DNA of 50,975 nt from a phage. Every line of letters starts with the position of its first letter. The stretch's first letter is position 1. Position numbers and translations under genes: made by a program. The stretch lies in sequence record PZ871100.1, one strand, 5' to 3'. The notes under the pieces are model-generated. The model was not told the origin of the DNA. It saw nothing but the letters and a program-made list of their open reading frames with translations, and did not search any database. This document shows, one piece after another, positions 20,485-43,236 of the stretch.

Positions 20485-20712
20485 TTACAGACTGCAATCA
20501 GCGTTTTTAAAGTTGTCAATGCTTACCCACTGAAAATTAAACGGATAGCCAGCCTTAACAAGAGTTCGATCGCCAACTCGTTTTACTCCAAAAATAGCAA
20601 CTGAATACTGCATGCCGCTATTTTCATAAATACCCGTGCATTCACGCTTAGGCATATTTGCGCAACCAGTCAGGGCAACGGCTGCAATCAAAACGGCGAT
20701 TAACTTTTTCAT
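20485..20712 (-). CDS. small lipoprotein, Cor-like superinfection-exclusion candidate
   Basis: 75 aa; signal peptide with lipobox LTGC; convergent with tail genes; own promoter unit. Confidence 0.55.
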   Translation of the reverse strand: MKKLIAVLIAAVALTGCANMPKRECTGIYENSGMQYSVAIFGVKRVGDRTLVKAGYPFNFQWVSIDNFKNADCSL

Positions 20713-20743
20713 CTTTGCGTCTCCTTCGTTGTTGTTGGTTGCA

Positions 20744-20787
20744 ACTATACACGATCTTGCGGTTGGCGTTTAGCAAAAAGTGCTATT
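20744..20787 (-). promoter_or_regulatory. conserved-box promoter-like unit driving Cor-like lipoprotein gene
   Basis: Minus-strand reading AATAGCACTTTTTGCTAAAC then 17 nt then TATAGT (plus 20744-20749). Confidence 0.55.
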
Positions 20788-20899
20788 CTTGTTCTTTTTG
20801 TTATCCGGTGTTCTCAAATCTGCGGAGTCTTAAATTTAGCTCAAAAAGCGAACAACAATAGAGCGCAATACATACAGATAAATATATATACATACATAT

Positions 20900-21050
20900 A
20901 AATCAATAAGTTAGTAGTATATATATTCATGTTTGTTCTTTATTGTTATCTATGTTTTGTGTGATTTTGTGTGTCTGGTGATTTTTCTGTGGTTATGCAT
21001 GTGTCATTGGTTATATGTGTCTATATATCTATATCCGGCGCAAATTGAGG
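20900..21050. repeat. GT-rich noncoding element A (homolog of 42403-42600)
   Basis: Shares exact 16-mer AAATCAATAAGTTAGT (20900-20915) and diverged GT-rich tract with element B. Confidence 0.6.
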
Positions 21051-21156
21051 AACAAGAGAACAAAAGATAACAAAGATATTTATCAATCACTTACATGTAA
21101 GTTTTGTTATCTAAGTTGGTTATAACGTTATTAGAACAGAAAAAACAAAATAACTA

Positions 21157-21184
21157 TTGACTAAACGCATCAAATAGCTACAAT
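21157..21184 (+). promoter_or_regulatory. sigma70-like promoter (TTGACT - 16 nt - TACAAT) upstream of exonuclease gene
   Basis: -35 at 21157-21162, -10 at 21179-21184, about 30 nt upstream of the ATG. Confidence 0.5.
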
Positions 21185-21213
21185 GCAGAAATACCAACCA
21201 ATGAGGGCAAATC

Positions 21214-22275
21214 ATGAATAAGTTTATGGCGTACACCAGCGAAGAAATGAGCAATGAGCTTTATCACGATCCAGAAGCGTTGACGGCTGATTATGTTAGT
21301 GGATCAAGCCTTGCAGAGATTTACAGCACATGCCCGGCAGCGTGGAAGTTCAAGCCGCGTGAAGATAAGAGCAAGGCGCTAGTTTTCGGTACGCAGTCGC
21401 ATACCAACTTTGAAAGCAAGGAGCTTTTCGAAAAAACCTACCGCCGTGCACCAGCGCCAGAAGACTTTAAGGATCTGATAACCAGCCAAACGGCGCTTGC
21501 TGCAAAGCTAAAATCATTTGGCCTGAAAGGTACAACAGGAAAGACTTACCCTGAACTTATAAAAATGTTGGTTGACTGCGGAGAAGACCTTAACGTTATG
21601 TGGTTAATCGACATGATCGCAGAAAGCCAGGCCAGGGCCGATGGGGTTCAGTTAATCGAAGCTAAAGATTACGATGCGTGCGTGGCAATGCGCCAGGTTC
21701 TTGAATCAATACCGGAACATAACGCATGTATGAATAGCAAGACGGCACAACGTGAATTATCGTTGTTCGGTGAAATCAACGGCGTAAAAGTCAAAGTGCG
21801 ATGCGATCACGTTGACGTAACAAAGAATGTGACAGCAACTCTGATTGATGGTTACGATGAAAAAGGTCAGCCGATTTGCCGCGATATTATTTATCCAGAA
21901 GCTATTGTGATCACTGACTACAAAACAACAATGAGCGCTAATCCGGTTGAGTTTATGCGCCTGGCTTACAATCACGGCTATTATTTGAAAATGGCGTTGC
22001 AATGTGATTTATTCAGAAAAGCGTATCCAGAAGAAAAGCGACCTATAGTTGTTCGACTGTTAGCGCAAGAGAAGAAAGAGCCTTATTTGCCGTTGGCTTT
22101 CCGCATGAACAGCGAGCAATTGAAGATCGGGCGCATTCAGTACATGAGCGTAATTAACCAGTTTGCCATGTGCCAGCAACATGACGTTTGGCCTTCGTAT
22201 TCAAACGGCGAGCCGGAGGTTTGCCTTGATACTCCTGATTGGGTGCGACGCCAGTTTAAGCAATATCTTATTTAA
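21214..22275 (+). CDS. PD-(D/E)XK-type exonuclease (RecE/YqaJ-like, putative)
   Basis: 353 aa; D...ITDYKTT motif; immediately upstream of ERF and SSB; sigma70-like promoter upstream. Confidence 0.5.
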   Translation: MNKFMAYTSEEMSNELYHDPEALTADYVSGSSLAEIYSTCPAAWKFKPREDKSKALVFGTQSHTNFESKELFEKTYRRAPAPEDFKDLITSQTALAAKLKSFGLKGTTGKTYPELIKMLVDCGEDLNVMWLIDMIAESQARADGVQLIEAKDYDACVAMRQVLESIPEHNACMNSKTAQRELSLFGEINGVKVKVRCDHVDVTKNVTATLIDGYDEKGQPICRDIIYPEAIVITDYKTTMSANPVEFMRLAYNHGYYLKMALQCDLFRKAYPEEKRPIVVRLLAQEKKEPYLPLAFRMNSEQLKIGRIQYMSVINQFAMCQQHDVWPSYSNGEPEVCLDTPDWVRRQFKQYLI

Positions 22276-27524: not shown

Positions 27525-28457
27525 TTAGAGAAGAGATTCAGGTTTATAAACCTTCCTCTCTATCCCTTGCCTGTAATTATCATTAATCGGCATCATAATT
27601 TCAAGTCCTCTTTCCTCGGCAGCAATGATCGCGTCACGATCTGTGCTCTTACAGACAACTCGCATTCTTCTGTTGCCTTTATACCTGTAAGCTACAATCT
27701 CAATGTTAGTTGCATCAAAGCAGGCCCAAACCTCTTGACCAGTTGCAAGGTGAATATGTTGCGCATCAATCCAGTCAACGCAAAGATAGATCGTCTTATC
27801 TGTGCTTCCTGTTCTCACAACCGACCCGCGCGTGTAGTCCTTTGCGAGAAAAGACCGTTTACCTTCTTCATCAATGAAAAGCACATTGCACATTTCATCA
27901 TCAATCTCATCTGAGTGTACCATGTGACAAGGTAGCGCGTGAATGTATCTACCATCTTTTACGCCGCAATCATAATGACCATCTTCAGGCGGGTATATTC
28001 CTTCATATGTGCTTAACGGCGTTCGATTAAATTTTAGTGTTTTTGACATAACGCGCTCGCAGCATTCATGGCTTGCCTGTTTACCAAACGAATAACCAGA
28101 ATCACGAGATACTCGCTTATTTGCCTTGATTCTATAGTCCTGCGGAACTTTTCCAAGAAAGCGACCCAAAATATTGATCACTTCGCTGTAAGGTTCTCCG
28201 GTTAGCTTCATGATCCAACCAATTCCAGTATCATTACCGCACACGTTGCAGATCGCACCGCCATCGCCTTTTTTATCGCCAAGTTTATCTGTCCACCTGA
28301 ATCGATCTTTTCCGCCGCAGTGGGGGCAAGATTGATGCTTGCCGTTAAAAACTTCATTTGGAAGACCGCAAATACTTTGTAGCGCCTCACGCCATAATCC
28401 TTGCATATATGGGAGAACATCTTCCTTTTGATAAACCATAAAGTTTTCGTTGTTCAT
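27525..28457 (-). CDS. DNA primase (zinc-binding CPxCGG type)
   Basis: ATG 28457 with GAGGTG RBS; CPHCGGKDRFRW...CNVCGN zinc-ribbon; followed by terminator. Confidence 0.65.
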   Translation of the reverse strand: MNNENFMVYQKEDVLPYMQGLWREALQSICGLPNEVFNGKHQSCPHCGGKDRFRWTDKLGDKKGDGGAICNVCGNDTGIGWIMKLTGEPYSEVINILGRFLGKVPQDYRIKANKRVSRDSGYSFGKQASHECCERVMSKTLKFNRTPLSTYEGIYPPEDGHYDCGVKDGRYIHALPCHMVHSDEIDDEMCNVLFIDEEGKRSFLAKDYTRGSVVRTGSTDKTIYLCVDWIDAQHIHLATGQEVWACFDATNIEIVAYRYKGNRRMRVVCKSTDRDAIIAAEERGLEIMMPINDNYRQGIERKVYKPESLL

Positions 28458-28512
28458 ATGCACCTCAAACAAAAAAGCCTGACAGATGATAACATCATGA
28501 CAGGCATTGTTT

Positions 28513-28986
28513 TTAGCAATTAGTGCTTTCAGGTTTATACAGGAATCCGCCAGGTTCATAATCTGACATTCTTACCACTCGCAACATTTCACGCTTATCA
28601 CATCTCTTTGTGAGCGGTTTTCCATTGGAATCAAATCGCAGATCTGGACGGCAGAATGAAGCGCGATAACCTTGACAGCCATACTTTTTATAATCATTGT
28701 GCACCTTTTGAGCGCCAGCGGCTGAAATCATACCGCGAACTCGCCACTGATTTACAGTTTGCTGGCTAACGTTAAGACGTTTTGCCATTGCTGACACACT
28801 TCCGTAATACTCAATAAGGATGTCAAGGCGTGCTTTTAGTCCGGCTCGCACTTCATCTTTTAAAACATAGTATCCTGTAGGGCGCTTGCGCTTCTTCTTG
28901 TCCTTGCCTCGTCTTGTTCCGTTATTGCCATTAATTGTGCGCTTGTCAATCTTTCCTGTTGATACTGCGATTCGTTGTTCTTTCAT
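28513..28986 (-). CDS. helix-turn-helix DNA-binding protein (putative regulator)
   Basis: 157 aa; basic N-terminus KDKKKRKRP; HTH-like SVSAMAKRLNVSQQTVNQW; heads the minus replication block. Confidence 0.5.
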   Translation of the reverse strand: MKEQRIAVSTGKIDKRTINGNNGTRRGKDKKKRKRPTGYYVLKDEVRAGLKARLDILIEYYGSVSAMAKRLNVSQQTVNQWRVRGMISAAGAQKVHNDYKKYGCQGYRASFCRPDLRFDSNGKPLTKRCDKREMLRVVRMSDYEPGGFLYKPESTNC

Positions 28987-28999
28987 TATTCATTCTCCA

Positions 29000-29042
29000 A
29001 TAGCATTTTTTGTTAAACGATGATTTAATGATTGTGTATTAT
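29000..29042 (+). promoter_or_regulatory. conserved-box promoter-like unit (box ATAGCATTTTTTGTTAAACG + 17 nt + TATTAT), helicase operon
   Basis: Box 29000-29019, -10-like hexamer 29037-29042; divergent from HTH gene. Confidence 0.55.
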
Positions 29043-29075
29043 ACACGCCAAATGGCATTACTCAAAGGTTTTAGA

Positions 29076-31121
29076 ATGATTCCAAACATTGAAAAGCAAA
29101 TATCAGCACTTGGCGAAGCGGTAATTAAATCCATTCAGGAGAGATTCACTGTTGGCGATATTGTGCCTTACCCTTACCAGTGCGTTGCATACGCTGAGAT
29201 CGCAAAGCGTATGAAAAATTATGAGCATCCATTCTTTGTTAAAGCGTCCGTATCTGCTGGCAAAACATTGATGTTTGCAATGGTTGCTCACCAGTGCCGG
29301 AAAATGGGCTTGAAAATGATGGTCCTTGCTCGCCAGGCTGAGATTGTAGATCAGGATTCTGAAGAGATAACAAATCTTGGTGTGCCGAACTCCATCTATT
29401 GTGCAGGACTGAAGACAAAAAGCGCATACTTTCCGATCGTTGTTGGTTCTGAGGGAACTGTAGTTAATGGACTGTTTAAAGCGCTTGGCGACTATGTTCC
29501 GCACGTTATCGGGATTGACGAATGTCACCAGGTGGATTGGGAAGACCTTGCCGACGCAATAGAGAAAGACGAATCATTTTTACAAATGACGACGAAGAAA
29601 GGCGAAAAAGTACCAAATCCAGATTATGACATAACAAAGGGAAGCAGGAACAGAAATACAGAGTTCCTGATTGGTGAGGATGGCTTGCCAATAGAGGGAA
29701 CAGGCCGCACACAATACACTGTCATTATCATGGAAATGATGCGCCGCTGCAGGAAAGCATATGGCCATGAACTGCGCATATTTGGCATGACTGGATCGGA
29801 GTTTCGCGGCGTAGTCCCGATCTTGGTAGAAGACAAAAAACAGAAAGGATTCTGGCGTGAACAGGTTACTAATATTGACACCAACTACCTGATCAAATTC
29901 GGTTCTGTTGTGCCAACAAATTTTGGCGACGTTGGCGATCTAGGGTATGACCTTTCAGAGTTTGAGGCATCCAGTGAGGATGGGGTTGCAGACTTTGACG
30001 CTAAAACGCTTCGCAGGATGGAACAAAAAATTCATGAAGAAGCGACCATGACAAAGCGCATCATGGCGAAAGTTCACGAGATCTGTAAAAACCGTAACGG
30101 CGTACTTGTGACATGTGCAGGAGAAAGGCATTGCAAAGAGGCTTCGGCGGCGTTGCCGCCTGGAACGACTTACAGGATCATTACTGGTAAGACTGGCGAT
30201 AACCAGCGCAAGGAGTGGTTGAAAGAAGCATACGAGGGAAAGGTTAAATACATCTTCCAGGTGCAGGCGCTAACTACTGGCGTTAACGTGCCGTTTTGGG
30301 ATACGTCTGTTATTCTGCGTAAGATTGGATCTCTTACGTTGCTGATTCAGCTTTTAGGGCGCGGAATGCGACTACTTAAGAAGTGGCATAAGGAGCAAGG
30401 ATTCCAGAAAGATGATCATCTCGTCATGGATTTTTCAGGAACGATGGACGAGCTGGGTGAGCTTTATTTTGATCCGATACTGGAACAGGCGCAGCACCAG
30501 AAGCGATTCAGAAATGGTAAAGATCCGAAGCCTTGTCCTGTTTGCGGAACTCTTAACAGCTATTATGCTCGTCGTTGTATGCACGTAGACGAAAACGGCA
30601 ACAGATGCGAGTGGTTCTTTAAATTCAGGACATGTGATGATCAGATTGACCCGCGCACTAAAAAGATTATTCATCGCGGTTGCGGAACTAAGAATGATAT
30701 TGCGGCCAGGGTATGCAGACATTGCGACATGTCATTGATTGACCCTAACGAGAAGTTAAGCGGAAAGCACTACACAAAAAACGACTGGTTCCAAGTGCAA
30801 TCTTTCGCGGTTGATATGACGAAAAACCAGAAAGGGATAATATTTAATTATGAGCTTTCCGATGGCATAGATACTTTCAAGGCGAGAGAGATATTTTTCC
30901 CTGAGTCTGAGAGCCAAATTTGCCGCGCAAAATGGCGAAGCGTTGCTCTTAAGCATATACCGGATCGCCGTGTCGCTGGTATGGTGGCGAGCTATCGCAA
31001 TGCGCGTAAAATCATGCAATATGTGAATCACATCATGCCGCCATCGCGTGTGACTCACCGCAAGACTAGCAAGGGCGAAGATAATTTGTACAAGAAGGAA
31101 TTTAATTATGGCAATGACTGA
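29076..31121 (+). CDS. SF2 helicase (DECH box) with C-terminal Cys-rich zinc-finger-like region
   Basis: Walker A-like SAGKTL, DECH motif GIDECHQ, C-terminal CPVCG...C...C clusters; start ambiguous (29052 or 29076). Confidence 0.75.
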   Translation: MIPNIEKQISALGEAVIKSIQERFTVGDIVPYPYQCVAYAEIAKRMKNYEHPFFVKASVSAGKTLMFAMVAHQCRKMGLKMMVLARQAEIVDQDSEEITNLGVPNSIYCAGLKTKSAYFPIVVGSEGTVVNGLFKALGDYVPHVIGIDECHQVDWEDLADAIEKDESFLQMTTKKGEKVPNPDYDITKGSRNRNTEFLIGEDGLPIEGTGRTQYTVIIMEMMRRCRKAYGHELRIFGMTGSEFRGVVPILVEDKKQKGFWREQVTNIDTNYLIKFGSVVPTNFGDVGDLGYDLSEFEASSEDGVADFDAKTLRRMEQKIHEEATMTKRIMAKVHEICKNRNGVLVTCAGERHCKEASAALPPGTTYRIITGKTGDNQRKEWLKEAYEGKVKYIFQVQALTTGVNVPFWDTSVILRKIGSLTLLIQLLGRGMRLLKKWHKEQGFQKDDHLVMDFSGTMDELGELYFDPILEQAQHQKRFRNGKDPKPCPVCGTLNSYYARRCMHVDENGNRCEWFFKFRTCDDQIDPRTKKIIHRGCGTKNDIAARVCRHCDMSLIDPNEKLSGKHYTKNDWFQVQSFAVDMTKNQKGIIFNYELSDGIDTFKAREIFFPESESQICRAKWRSVALKHIPDRRVAGMVASYRNARKIMQYVNHIMPPSRVTHRKTSKGEDNLYKKEFNYGND

Positions 31122-36342: not shown

Positions 36343-37926
36343 TTACCCCAGCAATGTTGGATTTACGAAAACAACGCCATTAATCACACAAATATAATTT
36401 CTTTCTTCAAGCATCGGCAGCAGTTGCGTTTCCATACGCTTCATTACGCCAGCCTGACCAACAAACGGCTTAACTTTTCGTGCAGCCTCATATATGGCGC
36501 GAACATTCAAGATTCCCTTGTTAGCCTTACCGTGTCGAGTGATAATCTCGATTAGTTTACCCATTTCAGCATCATCACCAGCATAGCCAGAAGCGTTGGC
36601 GGCGCTAATGTATGTTTTGCTCAACTCGCTAAACATCAGCAGTGCTTCCTGAACGGTTTCAACCTCAATCTCTTTCGACTTTTGAGGGTATCCGCCAGGA
36701 TTAAACCAATTGCGGATAGTGTGCAAAACCGAAGCAATCCTGATCACCTGCTTATCCATTTTGCCAAGCGCACCGCGCAGCATTGTATGCGAATACTTTC
36801 CGCCATCGGCAAGGTGCGGTTCCATCTCCTGACGAGCCATGTTAAGAACTCGCATTGCGGATTTGCTGATCTTAAGCTGGATGTTTGATTCACTCATGAT
36901 GTTATGGATCAGCTTGAAATATTGGCTTTTCAGTTCTCCATCAACAGGTTCATAAGTAGAATCACCGTTATCATCAACAAACTTTCTACGGCCTAAAAAT
37001 GATTCCTCACGCACAAGCAAATAACGCTCACTTACACCGATACCGCGAGATCCTGCATCCATGATGGCATTGATTGTTTCATCCTGGGCAATTACCGCCA
37101 TACAGCCAAGAGCTTTAAAACTCATATTGTTGTCAGCGTTTGCACGAGCTATAGAAACATGACCATGATCCCATGCTTTTAGCACAAGTTCGCTGTTGGT
37201 TTTACGTTCGCTATTGGCATATGTCAGACCTAAAAGGCTGTTAATACTTGTTGCCTCGTCTGAAATCACAGCAAAGTTACCCTGGCGATTGTTGATTCTT
37301 GCAAGTCCTTCCGGCGTTGTGTCGGACACAGGGAAAACGATGTCACACATCTTTTCCAGTTTTTCTTCCAGATCTTCTTTCTCCTGGTACAGGGATTCCA
37401 TATCAGCGCCGGAGCGCTCGCTTTTCATCTCTTTTGCAAGACCTGCCAACTTTGCCTGAATCTTTTTTCTTTCCTTCTTTCTCTGATCGTTAATTCTTTC
37501 CACTTCTGCAACCATTGGAGCAAGTGCCAGGCTGTTAACGGCAGATTTACCAGTTGAAGGAGGCTGGCTTGTGACAACATAAAGAGCGGTCGGCTGATCC
37601 GTTCCGTGATACTCAACAGTGAAGCGTCCAAGCATTGCAGCAGACACACATCCGATAAAATGCATATATGCCGATGATTCAGGAAATTGAACAGATCGAG
37701 CAATATTGCGCGCCAGCTTACCAACAATATCAACATCATTGCCGAGAGAAATTACAGGGTAGCGATCGTTTCCGTTATTAACATCATTAACCTCACCCCA
37801 AAAGCTGGACGATTGACGGTATCCGTTTGCCTGAATGGACACGCGCACAGGAGACAATCCTTGTGCATCAGCTAATTCGATAATTTGTTTTGGTGTTAGT
37901 TTATTGGTTTCAAACGAAAAATTCAT
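36343..37926 (-). CDS. P-loop NTPase, replication-associated (DUF3987-like, putative)
   Basis: ATG 37926 with AAGGAG RBS; Walker A-like PPSTGKS; acidic coiled region; own promoter unit. Confidence 0.4.
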   Translation of the reverse strand: MNFSFETNKLTPKQIIELADAQGLSPVRVSIQANGYRQSSSFWGEVNDVNNGNDRYPVISLGNDVDIVGKLARNIARSVQFPESSAYMHFIGCVSAAMLGRFTVEYHGTDQPTALYVVTSQPPSTGKSAVNSLALAPMVAEVERINDQRKKERKKIQAKLAGLAKEMKSERSGADMESLYQEKEDLEEKLEKMCDIVFPVSDTTPEGLARINNRQGNFAVISDEATSINSLLGLTYANSERKTNSELVLKAWDHGHVSIARANADNNMSFKALGCMAVIAQDETINAIMDAGSRGIGVSERYLLVREESFLGRRKFVDDNGDSTYEPVDGELKSQYFKLIHNIMSESNIQLKISKSAMRVLNMARQEMEPHLADGGKYSHTMLRGALGKMDKQVIRIASVLHTIRNWFNPGGYPQKSKEIEVETVQEALLMFSELSKTYISAANASGYAGDDAEMGKLIEIITRHGKANKGILNVRAIYEAARKVKPFVGQAGVMKRMETQLLPMLEERNYICVINGVVFVNPTLLG

Positions 37927-37953
37927 TGGTGATAACTCCTTTTTGATGCGGCA

Positions 37954-37997
37954 ATAATACCGCACCAATGCTACCCGCATTTAACAAAAAATGCTAT
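37954..37997 (-). promoter_or_regulatory. conserved-box promoter-like unit upstream of P-loop NTPase gene
   Basis: Minus-strand ATAGCATTTTTTGTTAAAT, 18 nt, TATTAT (plus 37954-37959). Confidence 0.55.
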
Positions 37998-41510: not shown

Positions 41511-41756
41511 TCATTGTTGATCGTGTTTAACGGCAATCAGAACATCACAGGACTCGTTAATGAATTTAGCCATGCGCTTATCATCACCAACAGGTATTAG
41601 CGCATTAAACTCGCGTTTGCTACTGAATACCGTCACTTTATGAAATGATGCGAACGGCATCGACGGGAACTCTACTGTTTGCGTCAGTATACGCAATCCC
41701 ATCTTTTTGGCCCTTACTTGGGCCTCAGCGAGTTCAAAATCCACTTCATTAATCAT
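41511..41756 (-). CDS. hypothetical protein
   Basis: 81 aa; ATGA overlap with upstream gene. Confidence 0.4.
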   Translation of the reverse strand: MINEVDFELAEAQVRAKKMGLRILTQTVEFPSMPFASFHKVTVFSSKREFNALIPVGDDKRMAKFINESCDVLIAVKHDQQ

Positions 41757-42025
41757 TTCTTGATCTCCTCAGCAATAAACTTCAGGACTTTGCGCAAAAA
41801 CACTTCATTATTGATGGTCGCTGGCAATTCTTCTTTTACTTCTTGCGGCAGGTAAACGTTGCCATGCCAGGTTAAGCAATCGTAGTTGATACGATAAGAG
41901 CAAAGCCACTCGCAATCGTTATCCGCTTCCCAAATGCAGAGTTGCAGAACATCGCCGAAATTCTCAACAGTCAGGTCCAGACCATGACGCTTGGCGAAAT
42001 TGAAAGTGGTTTTGCTGATGTTCAT
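41753..42025 (-). CDS. hypothetical protein
   Basis: 90 aa; AGGAG RBS; promoter unit and conserved leader upstream. Confidence 0.45.
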   Translation of the reverse strand: MNISKTTFNFAKRHGLDLTVENFGDVLQLCIWEADNDCEWLCSYRINYDCLTWHGNVYLPQEVKEELPATINNEVFLRKVLKFIAEEIKK

Positions 42026-42064
42026 TTGCTTTCTCCTGATTGGTATCTCGTTTCGATGTATGCA

Positions 42065-42107
42065 TTATGACAAATACAGTCAGGCACGTTTTAACAAAAA
42101 GTGCTAT
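42065..42107 (-). promoter_or_regulatory. conserved-box promoter-like unit (first of the minus small-gene block)
   Basis: Minus-strand box (plus 42088-42107), 17 nt, CATAAT (plus 42065-42070), leader CATCGAAACGA. Confidence 0.6.
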
Positions 42108-42402
42108 TTGCTGACTGGTCATTATTCCATATATTCCATTAATCAGGAATAACAGGAATAACTCATTCGCGATCACCTGGATTGGGAGACTTTGAGTTTG
42201 GTCAATTTTAATCAAGTGATTAACTTTTTGTGTGGAGGGGATAGAGAAACGCGATCCTCTCGCACCCTTTCCGGCAATCCTGGCGCGCAACATGTTCATT
42301 ATGTTTCCAGCCGTTCACGCAAATAAGCCTCCGCAGTTCTTCCACGTTTCATGCTGTCATGCACACAAAAGAAACAATGTAAAATCTATATAAATACACA
42401 TT

Positions 42403-42600
42403 AAATCAATAAGTTAGTTATATATGTATTTATATTTGTTTCTTATTGTTCTTGTTGTGTGATGGTTATTGGTATATGTTGCGATTTTTGTGTTGGTGGA
42501 TATTGATTGTTTATTGTTCGATTTGGTTGATGATTATGGTTGCTCATGGTTGCGTATGATTCTTGATGTATTTATGTATATATCCGCGAAAATTCGCGAA
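42403..42600. repeat. GT-rich noncoding element B (homolog of 20900-21050)
   Basis: 16-mer AAATCAATAAGTTAGT at 42403-42418, GT-rich tract, inverted repeat CGCGAA aa TTCGCG near 3-prime end. Confidence 0.6.
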
Positions 42601-42707
42601 CAGCCACACAGCCAAAAAACATGATGAGGATTCTTTTGAAATCATGCACTTAACTGCGAATTTTGTTTCCGCGCAATCTCCACACGTATAGCGAACAATT
42701 AGAACGC

Positions 42708-42737
42708 TTGACATAGGCGCGGCGTGGTGGCAACATT
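42708..42737 (+). promoter_or_regulatory. possible sigma70-like promoter (perfect TTGACA, weak -10) with adjacent inverted repeat
   Basis: TTGACA 42708-42713; weak -10 CAACAT/AACATT about 17-18 nt downstream; GGTGG...CCACC inverted repeat overlaps. Confidence 0.3.
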
Positions 42738-42774: not shown

Positions 42775-43236
42775 ATGACCATGACAAGCAAGGAATTTTG
42801 CGATATGTTGCGAGTTAATGCAGCCTCACTAGCTAACGGGGATGTTAGCGAACTGCAAATCAAGGAGCTTGACTTGCAATGTAATATTGCGCCGGAAGAC
42901 TTGAGGAAAATTAACGCCTCATACATCCGAACGATTATGAATCGAACGCCGGAGGTGAAAGCCGTTGGCGTGGTGAAGGTTGAACGCGTTCGAGGCGATG
43001 CTGACATTCCTGATTGTTATCGCGTAACAATTAACCAGAATCCAAAGCGCCGCTTGCTGACAGATGAAGAACTGCCAAAACTTGAAAGTAAGTGGCGAGC
43101 AAAGTTTATTGCTCAACTGCTTAAAACACAGCCGCGAATCAGCGATCTGGAAGGTGAGCGCCTGGAAGGTGCGGCAATCGCACTTGAGCGAATGAATGAA
43201 ATGCTTAACGATATGGTAAAGATGGAGGATGAATAA
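42775..43236 (+). CDS. hypothetical protein (first gene after noncoding region B)
   Basis: ATG 42775 with AGGAG RBS; 153 aa. Confidence 0.45.
   Translation: MTMTSKEFCDMLRVNAASLANGDVSELQIKELDLQCNIAPEDLRKINASYIRTIMNRTPEVKAVGVVKVERVRGDADIPDCYRVTINQNPKRRLLTDEELPKLESKWRAKFIAQLLKTQPRISDLEGERLEGAAIALERMNEMLNDMVKMEDE

Follow-up and report, generated by a model that had tools for sequence, protein, structure and literature searches.

Paired noncoding modules of phased boxes and IHF-type sites in a T1-like phage genome: candidates for a replication origin or an early-promoter control region

Results

A noncoding gap beside the recombination genes has a paralogous counterpart

The window analysed here, the whole 50,975-bp stretch of record PZ871100.1, is the complete genome of a T1-like phage (Drexlerviridae, Tempevirinae, Hanrivervirus-like), and our subject is a noncoding element, element A, that lies at one of its divergent transcription junctions. 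The gap that holds it measures 501 bp, from the cor gene (20712..20485, minus strand) to the RecE-like exonuclease gene (21214..22275, plus strand), with erf and ssb downstream of the latter. This agrees with a preliminary description of the DNA, which had put about 500 bp of noncoding sequence between cor and the recombination module and had defined the element, at 20860-21213, by a G+T-rich, C-poor tract. Such a tract lies where it was described (20957-21035: T 52%, G 24%, A 15%, C 9%). A second element, B, occupies a gap of about 750 bp between a leftward block that includes the gene for a DUF3987 helicase (first gene 42025..41753) and rightward early genes that start at 42775, and the top G+T 150-nt windows of the whole genome fall in B (0.79 at 42426) and in A (0.69 at 20901). 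The genome has three divergent junctions rather than the two originally counted, and the third (28987-29076) carries no box arrays of the kind described below. Over the region 20700-21230 the window shares 97.7% identity with Shigella phage pSf-1, and identities with many Hanrivervirus records are 90-94%.

Elements A and B resemble each other beyond chance, as had been proposed. A blastn search of 20860-21213 against the whole window recovered 42382-42493 with 76.5% identity over 115 nt (E 3.9e-16), and all other matches in the window had E values of 0.05 or higher. The 16-mer previously noticed in both elements is present and is actually a 17-mer, TAAATCAATAAGTTAGT, found at 20898-20914 and 42401-42417 (copies 21,503 bp apart); it lies outside the G+T-rich tract to which it had been assigned, in the A+T-rich spacer to the left. 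Homologous elements exist in related phages: A has homologues in 149 phage records and B in 134, all of them T1-like, and a search of 72,556 plasmids matched neither module.

Loci for comparison were taken from viral contigs, 44 of them anchored on the exonuclease gene and 51 on the helicase gene; anchoring B on its downstream gene recovered only 4 loci because that gene is variable, and the helicase anchor worked instead. All conservation counts given below refer to 29 copies (19 of B and 10 of A) aligned to an nhmmer profile made from ten A copies. This profile, built from A homologues alone, matches the B element of the window in two pieces (E ~1e-16 each), and its matches to B are always oriented so that A and B are co-directional. 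In other genomes nearly the whole profile aligns to the B elements (locus L055, E 6e-36; locus L066, E 1e-30), and A and B are therefore paralogous modules of about 370-420 bp, not merely similar tracts. The two are paired across the Tempevirinae. Module A spans 20789-21156 and module B 42293-42707. Element A had thus been located correctly and forms the right two thirds of module A, whose homology begins near 20789, 70 bp to the left of the earlier boundary at 20860.

The features of module A in the window, with profile columns and the percentage of the 29 copies that keep them, are as follows.

20789-20815, plus strand: box array 1 (forward), TTGTTCTTTTTGTTATCCGGTGTTCTC, a triple phased TGTT at 20790, 20799 and 20809; GTT columns 14 and 24 kept in 97-100% of the 29 copies
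20848-20877, plus strand: box array 2 (reverse, with AACA boxes degenerate in this copy), GCGAACAACAATAGAGCGCAATACATACAG; AAC columns 65 and 74 kept in 72-76%
20878-20931, plus strand: A+T-rich TATATA segment with IHF-type site 1, AATCAATAAGTTA (20901-20913), an exact match to WATCAANNNNTTR and the core of the 16/17-mer shared by A and B
20932-20959, plus strand: box array 3 (forward), TTTGTTCTTTATTGTTATCTATGTTTTG, a triple phased TGTT at 20934, 20944 and 20953; GTT columns 139, 149 and 158 kept in 79-97%
20957-21035, plus strand: G+T-rich, C-poor tract, defined by composition and ending in TATATATCTATATC
21035-21046, plus strand: conserved G+C motif, CCGGCGCAAATT; ..CG.A..T in at least 85%
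21047-21075, plus strand: box array 4 (reverse), GAGGAACAAGAGAACAAAAGATAACAAAG; AAC column 255 kept in 86% and column 274 in 52%; minus-strand phased pair at 21072
21081-21093, plus strand: IHF-type site 2, TATCAATCACTTA, an exact consensus match; ATCAnnnnCTTA kept across A copies
21101-21154, plus strand: promoter-proximal boxes, GTTTTGTTATC (forward, 21101-21111) and TAGAACAGAAAAAACAAAATAAC (reverse, 21132-21154); GTT columns 311 and 332, AAC columns 340 and 349
21157-21184, plus strand: sigma70-type promoter TTGACT-16-TACAAT of the recE-erf-ssb operon; TATTGACT invariant in A copies; equivalent to TLS P51

Module B is laid out in parallel.

42293-42318, plus strand: box array 1 (forward), TGTTCATTATGTTTCCAGCCGTTCAC
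42362-42379, plus strand: box array 2 (reverse), CACACAAAAGAAACAATG, the left arm of a 40-nt inverted repeat
42384-42434, plus strand: TATATA segment with IHF-type site 1, AATCAATAAGTTA (42404-42416)
42435-42461, plus strand: box array 3 (forward), TTTGTTTCTTATTGTTCTTGTTGTGTG
42463-42583, plus strand: G+T-rich tract of 121 nt (T 51%, G 26%, A 17%, C 5%)
42584-42621, plus strand: G+C motif, CCGCGAAAATTCGCG, followed by box array 4 (reverse), GAACAGCCACACAGCCAAAAAACA
42640-42652, plus strand: IHF-like site 2, AATCATGCACTTA, with one mismatch to the core consensus
42660-42713, plus strand: promoter-proximal boxes, ATTTTGTTTCC and GCGAACAATTAGAACGC, together with a -35-like TTGACA (42708-42713)

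Phased boxes and IHF-type sites form the conserved component

The conserved component of the modules is a series of short boxes with the core TGTT (AACA on the opposite strand), set in arrays of alternating orientation. GTT or AAC is kept at profile columns 14/24, 65/74, 139/149/158, 255/274, 311/332 and 340/349, so that neighbouring boxes are spaced 9-10.5 bp apart. Phased TGTT pairs number 8 in the two gaps, where shuffled sequence gives 0.25 +/- 0.5, and 15 in the remaining 49.7 kb. Each module comprises five or six box arrays one helical turn apart, with two IHF-type sites at the points where arrays diverge. From left to right, forward boxes are followed by a G+C motif (in most relatives CGGCGTAAAAT, which is similar to CCGGCGCAAATT and lies between arrays 1 and 2), reverse boxes, a TATA run and IHF-type site 1; then come a TATATAT run, three forward boxes, the G+T tract, another TATATAT run and CCGGCGCAAAT; and the module is completed by three reverse boxes, IHF-type site 2, a forward box, reverse boxes and the -35 hexamer. 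The alternation of the arrays is visible as inverted repetition within single copies, array 1 of A being an inverted copy of 21056-21074 (84% complementary) and B containing a 40-nt inverted repeat (42362-42401 and 42422-42461, 75% complementary).

The core consensus for IHF binding is WATCAANNNNTTR. Exact matches to it number 11 genome-wide, against 4.6 by chance, and 4 of them lie within the two gaps (1.25 kb), all on the plus strand, at 20901, 21081, 42404 and 42210. The 16-mer to which attention was first drawn contains one such match, AATCAATAAGTTA, and is thus an IHF-type site by sequence. Binding-site arrays, one of the functions originally suggested for A and B, therefore have good sequence support from the phased TGTT pairs, from box positions conserved across the 29 copies and from the share of the IHF-core matches (4 of 11) that falls in the two gaps.

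The same inverted sequences bear on a different suggestion, that the elements encode noncoding RNAs, whether a GU-rich transcript of the plus strand or an antisense one, C-rich, G-poor and able to load Rho. Each single sequence does fold into a long A+T-rich hairpin around the shared 17-mer, most strongly for the minus strand of B (z = -3.1), and a minus-strand transcript of the tract would be C/A-rich, G-poor and rut-like. On the other three of the four strands, however, folding energies are ordinary (z = -0.4 to -0.9), and RNAalifold applied to 19 diverse copies found zero conserved pairs, on which ground a conserved hairpin or cruciform around the 17-mer was rejected. The hairpins and the inverted repeat follow from the inverted box arrays together with the TATA runs. 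Rfam at gathering thresholds gave 0 hits in the window, and neither element contains a sigma70-like promoter or an intrinsic terminator on either strand scanned. We regard noncoding RNA genes as highly improbable.

The G+T-rich tract keeps its strand composition in the least stable DNA of the genome

The G+T-rich tract, taken at first to be the element itself, proved to be the least conserved part of the larger module. Its length ranges from 75 to 145 nt over the 29 copies, with no multiple-of-three pattern, and its pairwise identity is 0.44, compared with 0.68 in the box/IHF part and with 0.30 expected by chance at the composition of the tract. What is kept is the composition of the strand: T exceeds A in 29/29 copies and G exceeds C in 26/29, on the same strand throughout, and within the Tempevirinae the G+T maximum (0.76-0.84 per 100 nt) stands at a fixed distance of ~290 nt from the exonuclease start. 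In a duplex neither strand has an identity of its own; retention of T and G on one particular strand of a spacer whose sequence is not kept therefore suggests strand separation at this place. Composition retained without sequence, frame or length fits either function or mutational exposure at the single-strand level; the bias could arise from initiator contact, helicase loading or priming, or it could arise from deamination of an exposed strand. Should the tract indeed act through its separated strands, it would offer a clear example of a DNA element in which nothing but strand composition is conserved.

Nearest-neighbour calculations place the lowest duplex stability of the genome within the two modules. 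In 80-nt windows the minimum lies at 20878 in A (-1.006 kcal/mol per step) and the second lowest value at 42367 in B (-1.015 kcal/mol per step); the mean over the genome is -1.362 kcal/mol per step, with a standard deviation of 0.071. At both 80 and 150 nt, A and B are the two least stable duplex windows, about 5 standard deviations off the mean.

The possibility that the tract encodes a small hydrophobic membrane peptide, such as the product of a 45-aa open reading frame (ORF) at 20933-21070, seems to us barely credible. This ORF is rich in F, L, V and C, B contains an ORF of 51 aa, and some database records annotate hypothetical proteins there. The hydrophobicity is accounted for by T-rich codons, however, and the longest ORF varies from 1 to 66 aa over the 29 copies, with differing starts and frames. 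Because frame, start and length are all unconserved, the 45-aa ORF is not a gene. The peptides share no common sequence, no Shine-Dalgarno sequence is present, the ORF in A begins with TTG, and the lengths of the tract, as noted, show no periodicity of three.

Two further observations on the tract concern individual records. Some B tracts (for example those of loci L060, L070, L061 and L058) carry a short G+C palindrome, GGGGTAT..ATACCCC (GGGGCACCCCC), which is absent from A copies and from the window. In locus L044 (Shigella phage 2019SD1, MT360681; 2466-2680) the module A tract is broken by exonuclease coding fragments, and the exonuclease promoter and start are absent; the record looks like a misassembly or a rearranged genome. 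Since the apparent insertion in its tract consists of recE fragments, L044 is uninformative.

T1 shows the same arrangement with boxes of its own

The two equivalent junctions of T1, a member of the Tunavirinae, are laid out in the same way. The global minima of duplex stability in T1 fall at 210 and 29999, exactly the equivalent sites, and a heptamer, TGTWACA, occurs 6 times in the two equivalent gaps and 0 times elsewhere in 48.8 kb. The Tempevirinae profile matches the T1 equivalent of B only weakly (E 0.0065). Lineage-specific boxes within a conserved layout point to a sequence-specific binder encoded by the phage rather than to a host factor.

Both modules end at early sigma70 promoters

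The sigma70-like promoter TTGACT-16-TACAAT previously described downstream of A is present at 21157-21184, with 10/12 positions matching, and the last box of module A ends 2 bp short of its -35 hexamer (21154 vs 21157). For the related phage TLS, no more than three intergenic sigma70 promoters, P01, P51 and P57, are given in supplementary Table S1 (PMC11447400). P01 lies directly to the right of module B and P51 directly to the right of module A, while P57 belongs to the regulator/primase operon. In the window the -10 of module B is weak and was not called by a promoter scan; its TLS equivalent, P01, is a good promoter.

These positions raise the alternative that the module is the upstream control region of early sigma70 promoters, with no need of a role in replication. 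A phage regulator such as the Cro-like helix-turn-helix (HTH) protein, made from the third early promoter, would then bind the boxes together with IHF, and the complex would activate, or later shut off, the promoters that lead rightward into the recE operon and into the early genes at 42775, with the G+T tract as a spacer of flexible or curved DNA. Control of promoters by upstream regions with the aid of IHF has precedents, and in both modules the last boxes abut the -35 hexamer (21154 vs 21157 in A; 42707 vs 42708 in B), at a module-promoter distance that is invariant among A copies. Of the three intergenic promoters of TLS, two adjoin modules, yet the third sigma70 promoter has no such module. 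A regulator is available, in that the genome encodes the Cro-like HTH protein, and T1 and this phage differ in the recognition helix of that protein as they do in the boxes; however, no TGTT/AACA box overlaps the -35 to -10 of the A promoter, where a repressor would act, and some 370 bp with at least 14 boxes and two IHF sites is a great deal of machinery for one promoter. Conservation of strand composition alone would be meaningless in double-stranded promoter DNA, and a control region would leave unexplained why these sites are the two most meltable both in this genome and in T1. We consider this account less likely than not, yet the strongest of the alternatives to an origin. It is compatible with an origin of replication, the two roles not being mutually exclusive.

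A candidate replication origin in two copies

The module of ~370-420 bp is the best candidate so far for a replication origin or an early-promoter control region of T1-like phages. We read the sequence as a site where a nucleoprotein complex would assemble, and most likely as a two-copy phage replication origin of the iteron/IHF kind, an identification that we favour tentatively and with somewhat less than even confidence. Origins of replication had also been among the functions originally suggested, and among these it is the one that fits best, given that A and B are the two least stable segments here and that their T1 equivalents are likewise; the suggestion stands as a reading of sequence. 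An origin fits because the module combines phased boxes, IHF-type sites, low duplex stability, a location between divergent units and a strand-biased spacer, and because no other origin candidate appeared in the genome. Cumulative GC skew was tried as an indicator of the origin and set aside, as it merely tracks gene orientation.

A working mechanism can be outlined on this basis. A phage-encoded protein would bind the box arrays on one face of the helix, and IHF would fold the arrays back onto one another. Negative supercoiling from the flanking divergent transcription units could aid melting of the TATATA and G+T region, whose T/G-rich strand would be held single-stranded for initiator contact, helicase loading or priming; strand composition, and not sequence, would then be what is conserved. 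Candidate binders of the boxes are the DUF3987 helicase, with its predicted winged-helix C-terminus, and the Cro-like HTH protein. The sigma70 promoter that begins 2 bp beyond the last box may also be governed by the same complex. A more specific proposal, which is speculative and, taken whole, doubtful, is a two-copy origin of new design, in which minimal lineage-specific boxes and IHF bends would wrap the DNA, the T/G-rich, C-poor spacer would be a single-strand landing pad for the phage helicase/primase, and A and B would cooperate in the manner of P4 ori and crr. Selection on the G+T tract would in that case have acted on strand composition rather than on sequence, with the tract serving for unwinding or loading.

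Recent genome papers on T1-like phages report no origin, neither for SU57 (PMC7718038) nor for TLS, in which no origin-type repeats were found (PMC11447400), and control of the T1-like infection cycle is listed as an open question (PMC7718038, PMC11447400). Our literature search found no transcriptome, no origin mapping and no account of the modules, though an earlier mention in the genome papers of T1 (2004) or Rtp (2006) is possible. T1 belongs to the seven classical T phages, and T1-like phages often turn up as contaminants in laboratories and fermentations. In this setting, two short, sharply bounded and highly structured noncoding modules that are paired across the family have the typical features of an origin or a master control region; in practical terms they are candidate targets for phage resistance and candidate parts for the engineering of T1-like vectors. 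The kind of element, an iteron/IHF origin or a promoter control region, is known, and it is the design that appears to be new, with minimal boxes in alternating arrays, a spacer conserved in composition only, and two paralogous copies.

Comparison with known origins and with candidate initiators

The closest parallel in layout is found in phage P4. P4 alpha binds type-1 repeats through a C-terminal winged helix and needs both ori and crr. As with the T1-like modules, these are two separated cis elements (~4.8 kb apart in P4) composed of short boxes in both orientations next to A+T-rich DNA; the P4 record annotates 'ori type 1 repeats' in ori and crr, which we read as TGTTCACC, 10-11 bp apart and in both orientations. 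The box cores are similar, several T1-like boxes being TGTTCAC, and in both systems a CCGGCG...AAT motif precedes AACA boxes (the module carries CCGGCG.AAAT along with its TATATA runs, and P4 ori has CCGGCGAAT). The primase of the phage is also homologous to the primase domain of P4 alpha. In contrast to P4, the T1-like primase and helicase are separate proteins, and the helicase is of the DUF3987 type, not alpha-like. The P4 elements lack a G+T-rich, strand-asymmetric spacer and have no annotated IHF sites, and the T1-like boxes are more degenerate.

Iteron-type origins (lambda ori, oriV of the pSC101/RK2 type, the left half of E. coli oriC) share with the modules phased repeats and an A+T-rich region of low stability, and their IHF bend would have its counterpart in the IHF-type sites. 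At oriC and in iteron plasmids the initiator, DnaA or a plasmid Rep protein, holds one specific strand of the unwinding element, the T-rich one, and such holding would explain why a spacer keeps its strand composition and nothing else. The modules differ from these origins in that they have no DnaA boxes, in that their boxes are far shorter than iterons of 17-22 bp and stand in alternating inverted arrays, and in that the module is duplicated. In P1 parS, lambda cosB and P1 pac, an IHF site is centred between opposed box arrays and the bend joins both arms on one protein complex. The module likewise has an IHF-type site amid opposed arrays, and module B lies near the assigned pac end. Unlike those systems, this is a lytic phage without a ParB-type gene, one pac site is known, and the stretch at the pac end lies outside the A/B homology.

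Three proteins of the phage are relevant to these comparisons. The primase (27525-28559, minus strand) has a primase-helicase zinc ribbon and matches the primase domain of P4 alpha by BLASTP (E 5e-12). Just upstream of this P4-alpha-type primase is encoded the Cro-like HTH protein (157 aa; 28513-28986, minus strand), which shares 60% identity with T1 ST23 and differs from it at several positions of the recognition helix. The DUF3987 helicase (545 aa; 36343-37980, minus strand) is predicted, with moderate confidence, to end in a winged helix comprising its last ~80 residues. Residues ~460-545 (36346-36600, minus strand) match a separate PHROG of unknown function, phrog_7327 (E 4e-37), so that the predicted winged helix also seems to be a PHROG family of its own. 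A PDB profile search with the helicase C-terminus was uninformative.

Several points weigh against the identification of the modules as origins. Among the sequence features, the IHF core is exact in only 17/29 copies at site 1 and in 7/29 at site 2 (14/29 at site 2 with a relaxed consensus), the invariant core of the boxes is just 3-4 nt, and their phasing could come in part from the curvature of T/A-tract DNA. The modules contain no DnaA boxes and no GATC cluster, and the G+T excess is weaker in T1 (0.68). Two equivalent origins in one genome would be unusual, and both modules end right at two of only three canonical sigma70 promoters, a position for which a role in promoter control accounts equally well. 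As to the initiator, none was identified among the phage proteins compared. The predicted fold of the helicase C-terminus matches winged helices broadly, Orc/Cdc6 and MCM among them; against the origin-binding domain of P4 alpha it gave an hhalign probability of 0.3%, with no detectable sequence homology, and the helicase itself showed no homology to P4 alpha. Finally, an nhmmer profile of A and B together gave best E values of 19-35 against P4, with no match to ori or crr, and the parallel with P4 is therefore one of layout (and box core) only.

Packaging, recombination and the DNA to the left of module B

The position of module B raises the question of packaging. The T1 and TLS records start at the assigned pac end, 100-250 bp to the left of module B (PMC11447400). 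The T1 counterpart of 42114-42290 is split between the two ends of its record (T1, locus L002: 48765-48836 plus 1-80); because the T1 and TLS records begin in the equivalent of this stretch, it probably holds the pac cleavage region. Three other features lie to the left of module B, namely an inverted repeat, TTATTCCATATATTCC / GGAATAACAGGAATAA (42122-42161), which is conserved in T1, a G-rich motif, gtgtggaggggatagag (tgtgagaggggggat in T1), and the further exact IHF core at 42210.

On this alternative the modules would act in packaging, with B as part of the pac recognition region and A secondary, or in recombination, with the G+T tracts as preferred pairing sequences for the formation of concatemers by RecE/Erf. 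The 2.8-kb terminal repeat of T1 includes its module B, and module A adjoins recombination genes; an IHF site accompanies repeated boxes in P1 pac and lambda cosB as well, and RecA has a preference for G+T-rich DNA. Yet the module is duplicated where a single pac site is known in T1 and TLS, and the stretch by the assigned pac end (42114-42290) is unique to B and outside the A/B homology. The genome has a single exact Chi, located outside A and B, and one 1-mismatch Chi in B, which led us to reject a Chi or Chi-like hotspot. We judge a role in packaging or recombination improbable.

The 21-nt direct repeat and other neighbouring features

A 21-nt direct repeat of unknown function, aaATAGCACnnnTTGnTAAAA, has been reported in T1-like phages in the TLS paper (PMC11447400). 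The following copies lie at the divergent junctions.

20770-20788, minus strand: direct-repeat copy (reverse complement GAATAGCACTTTTTGCTAA) upstream of cor, matching aaATAGCACnnnTTGnTAAAA and flanking module A on the left
29000-29018, plus strand: direct-repeat copy
42089-42110, minus strand: direct-repeat copy to the left of module B

The repeat stands upstream of ~20 genes, always oriented with the downstream gene, and the sequence ATAGCAC occurs 20 times in the window, with no occurrence inside 20789-21156 or 42293-42707. Like the modules, the repeat is noncoding, is found in the same genomes and has one copy to the left of each module, and its 3' half, TTTTTGTTA, resembles a single box. 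Unlike them, it is a separate 21-mer outside the A/B homology and is conserved between T1 and this phage, where the boxes of the modules differ.

A mechanically listed ORF of 111 aa (41964-42299, minus strand) is probably not a gene; it runs across an IHF-type site as well as the direct and inverted repeats in this part of the genome. Among the database records, ~18 entries labelled 'Campylobacter phage' (MG065636-MG065680) are 92-94% identical to the present coliphage over the region; these are T1-like genomes, and the entries were probably mislabelled or are contaminants.

At the third junction, the Cro-like HTH/primase operon has a minus-strand promoter of sigma70-like sequence, TTGAGT-16-TATAAT (29065 to 29038), and the SNF2-like helicase probably starts at the ATG at 29077, not at the mechanically listed TTG at 29010. 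The TTG of the direct repeat at this junction is ~21 nt from the nearest -10-like hexamer, at 29037. This gap is too long for a standard -35. The direct repeat looks like a site for a phage factor rather than a plain sigma70 promoter.

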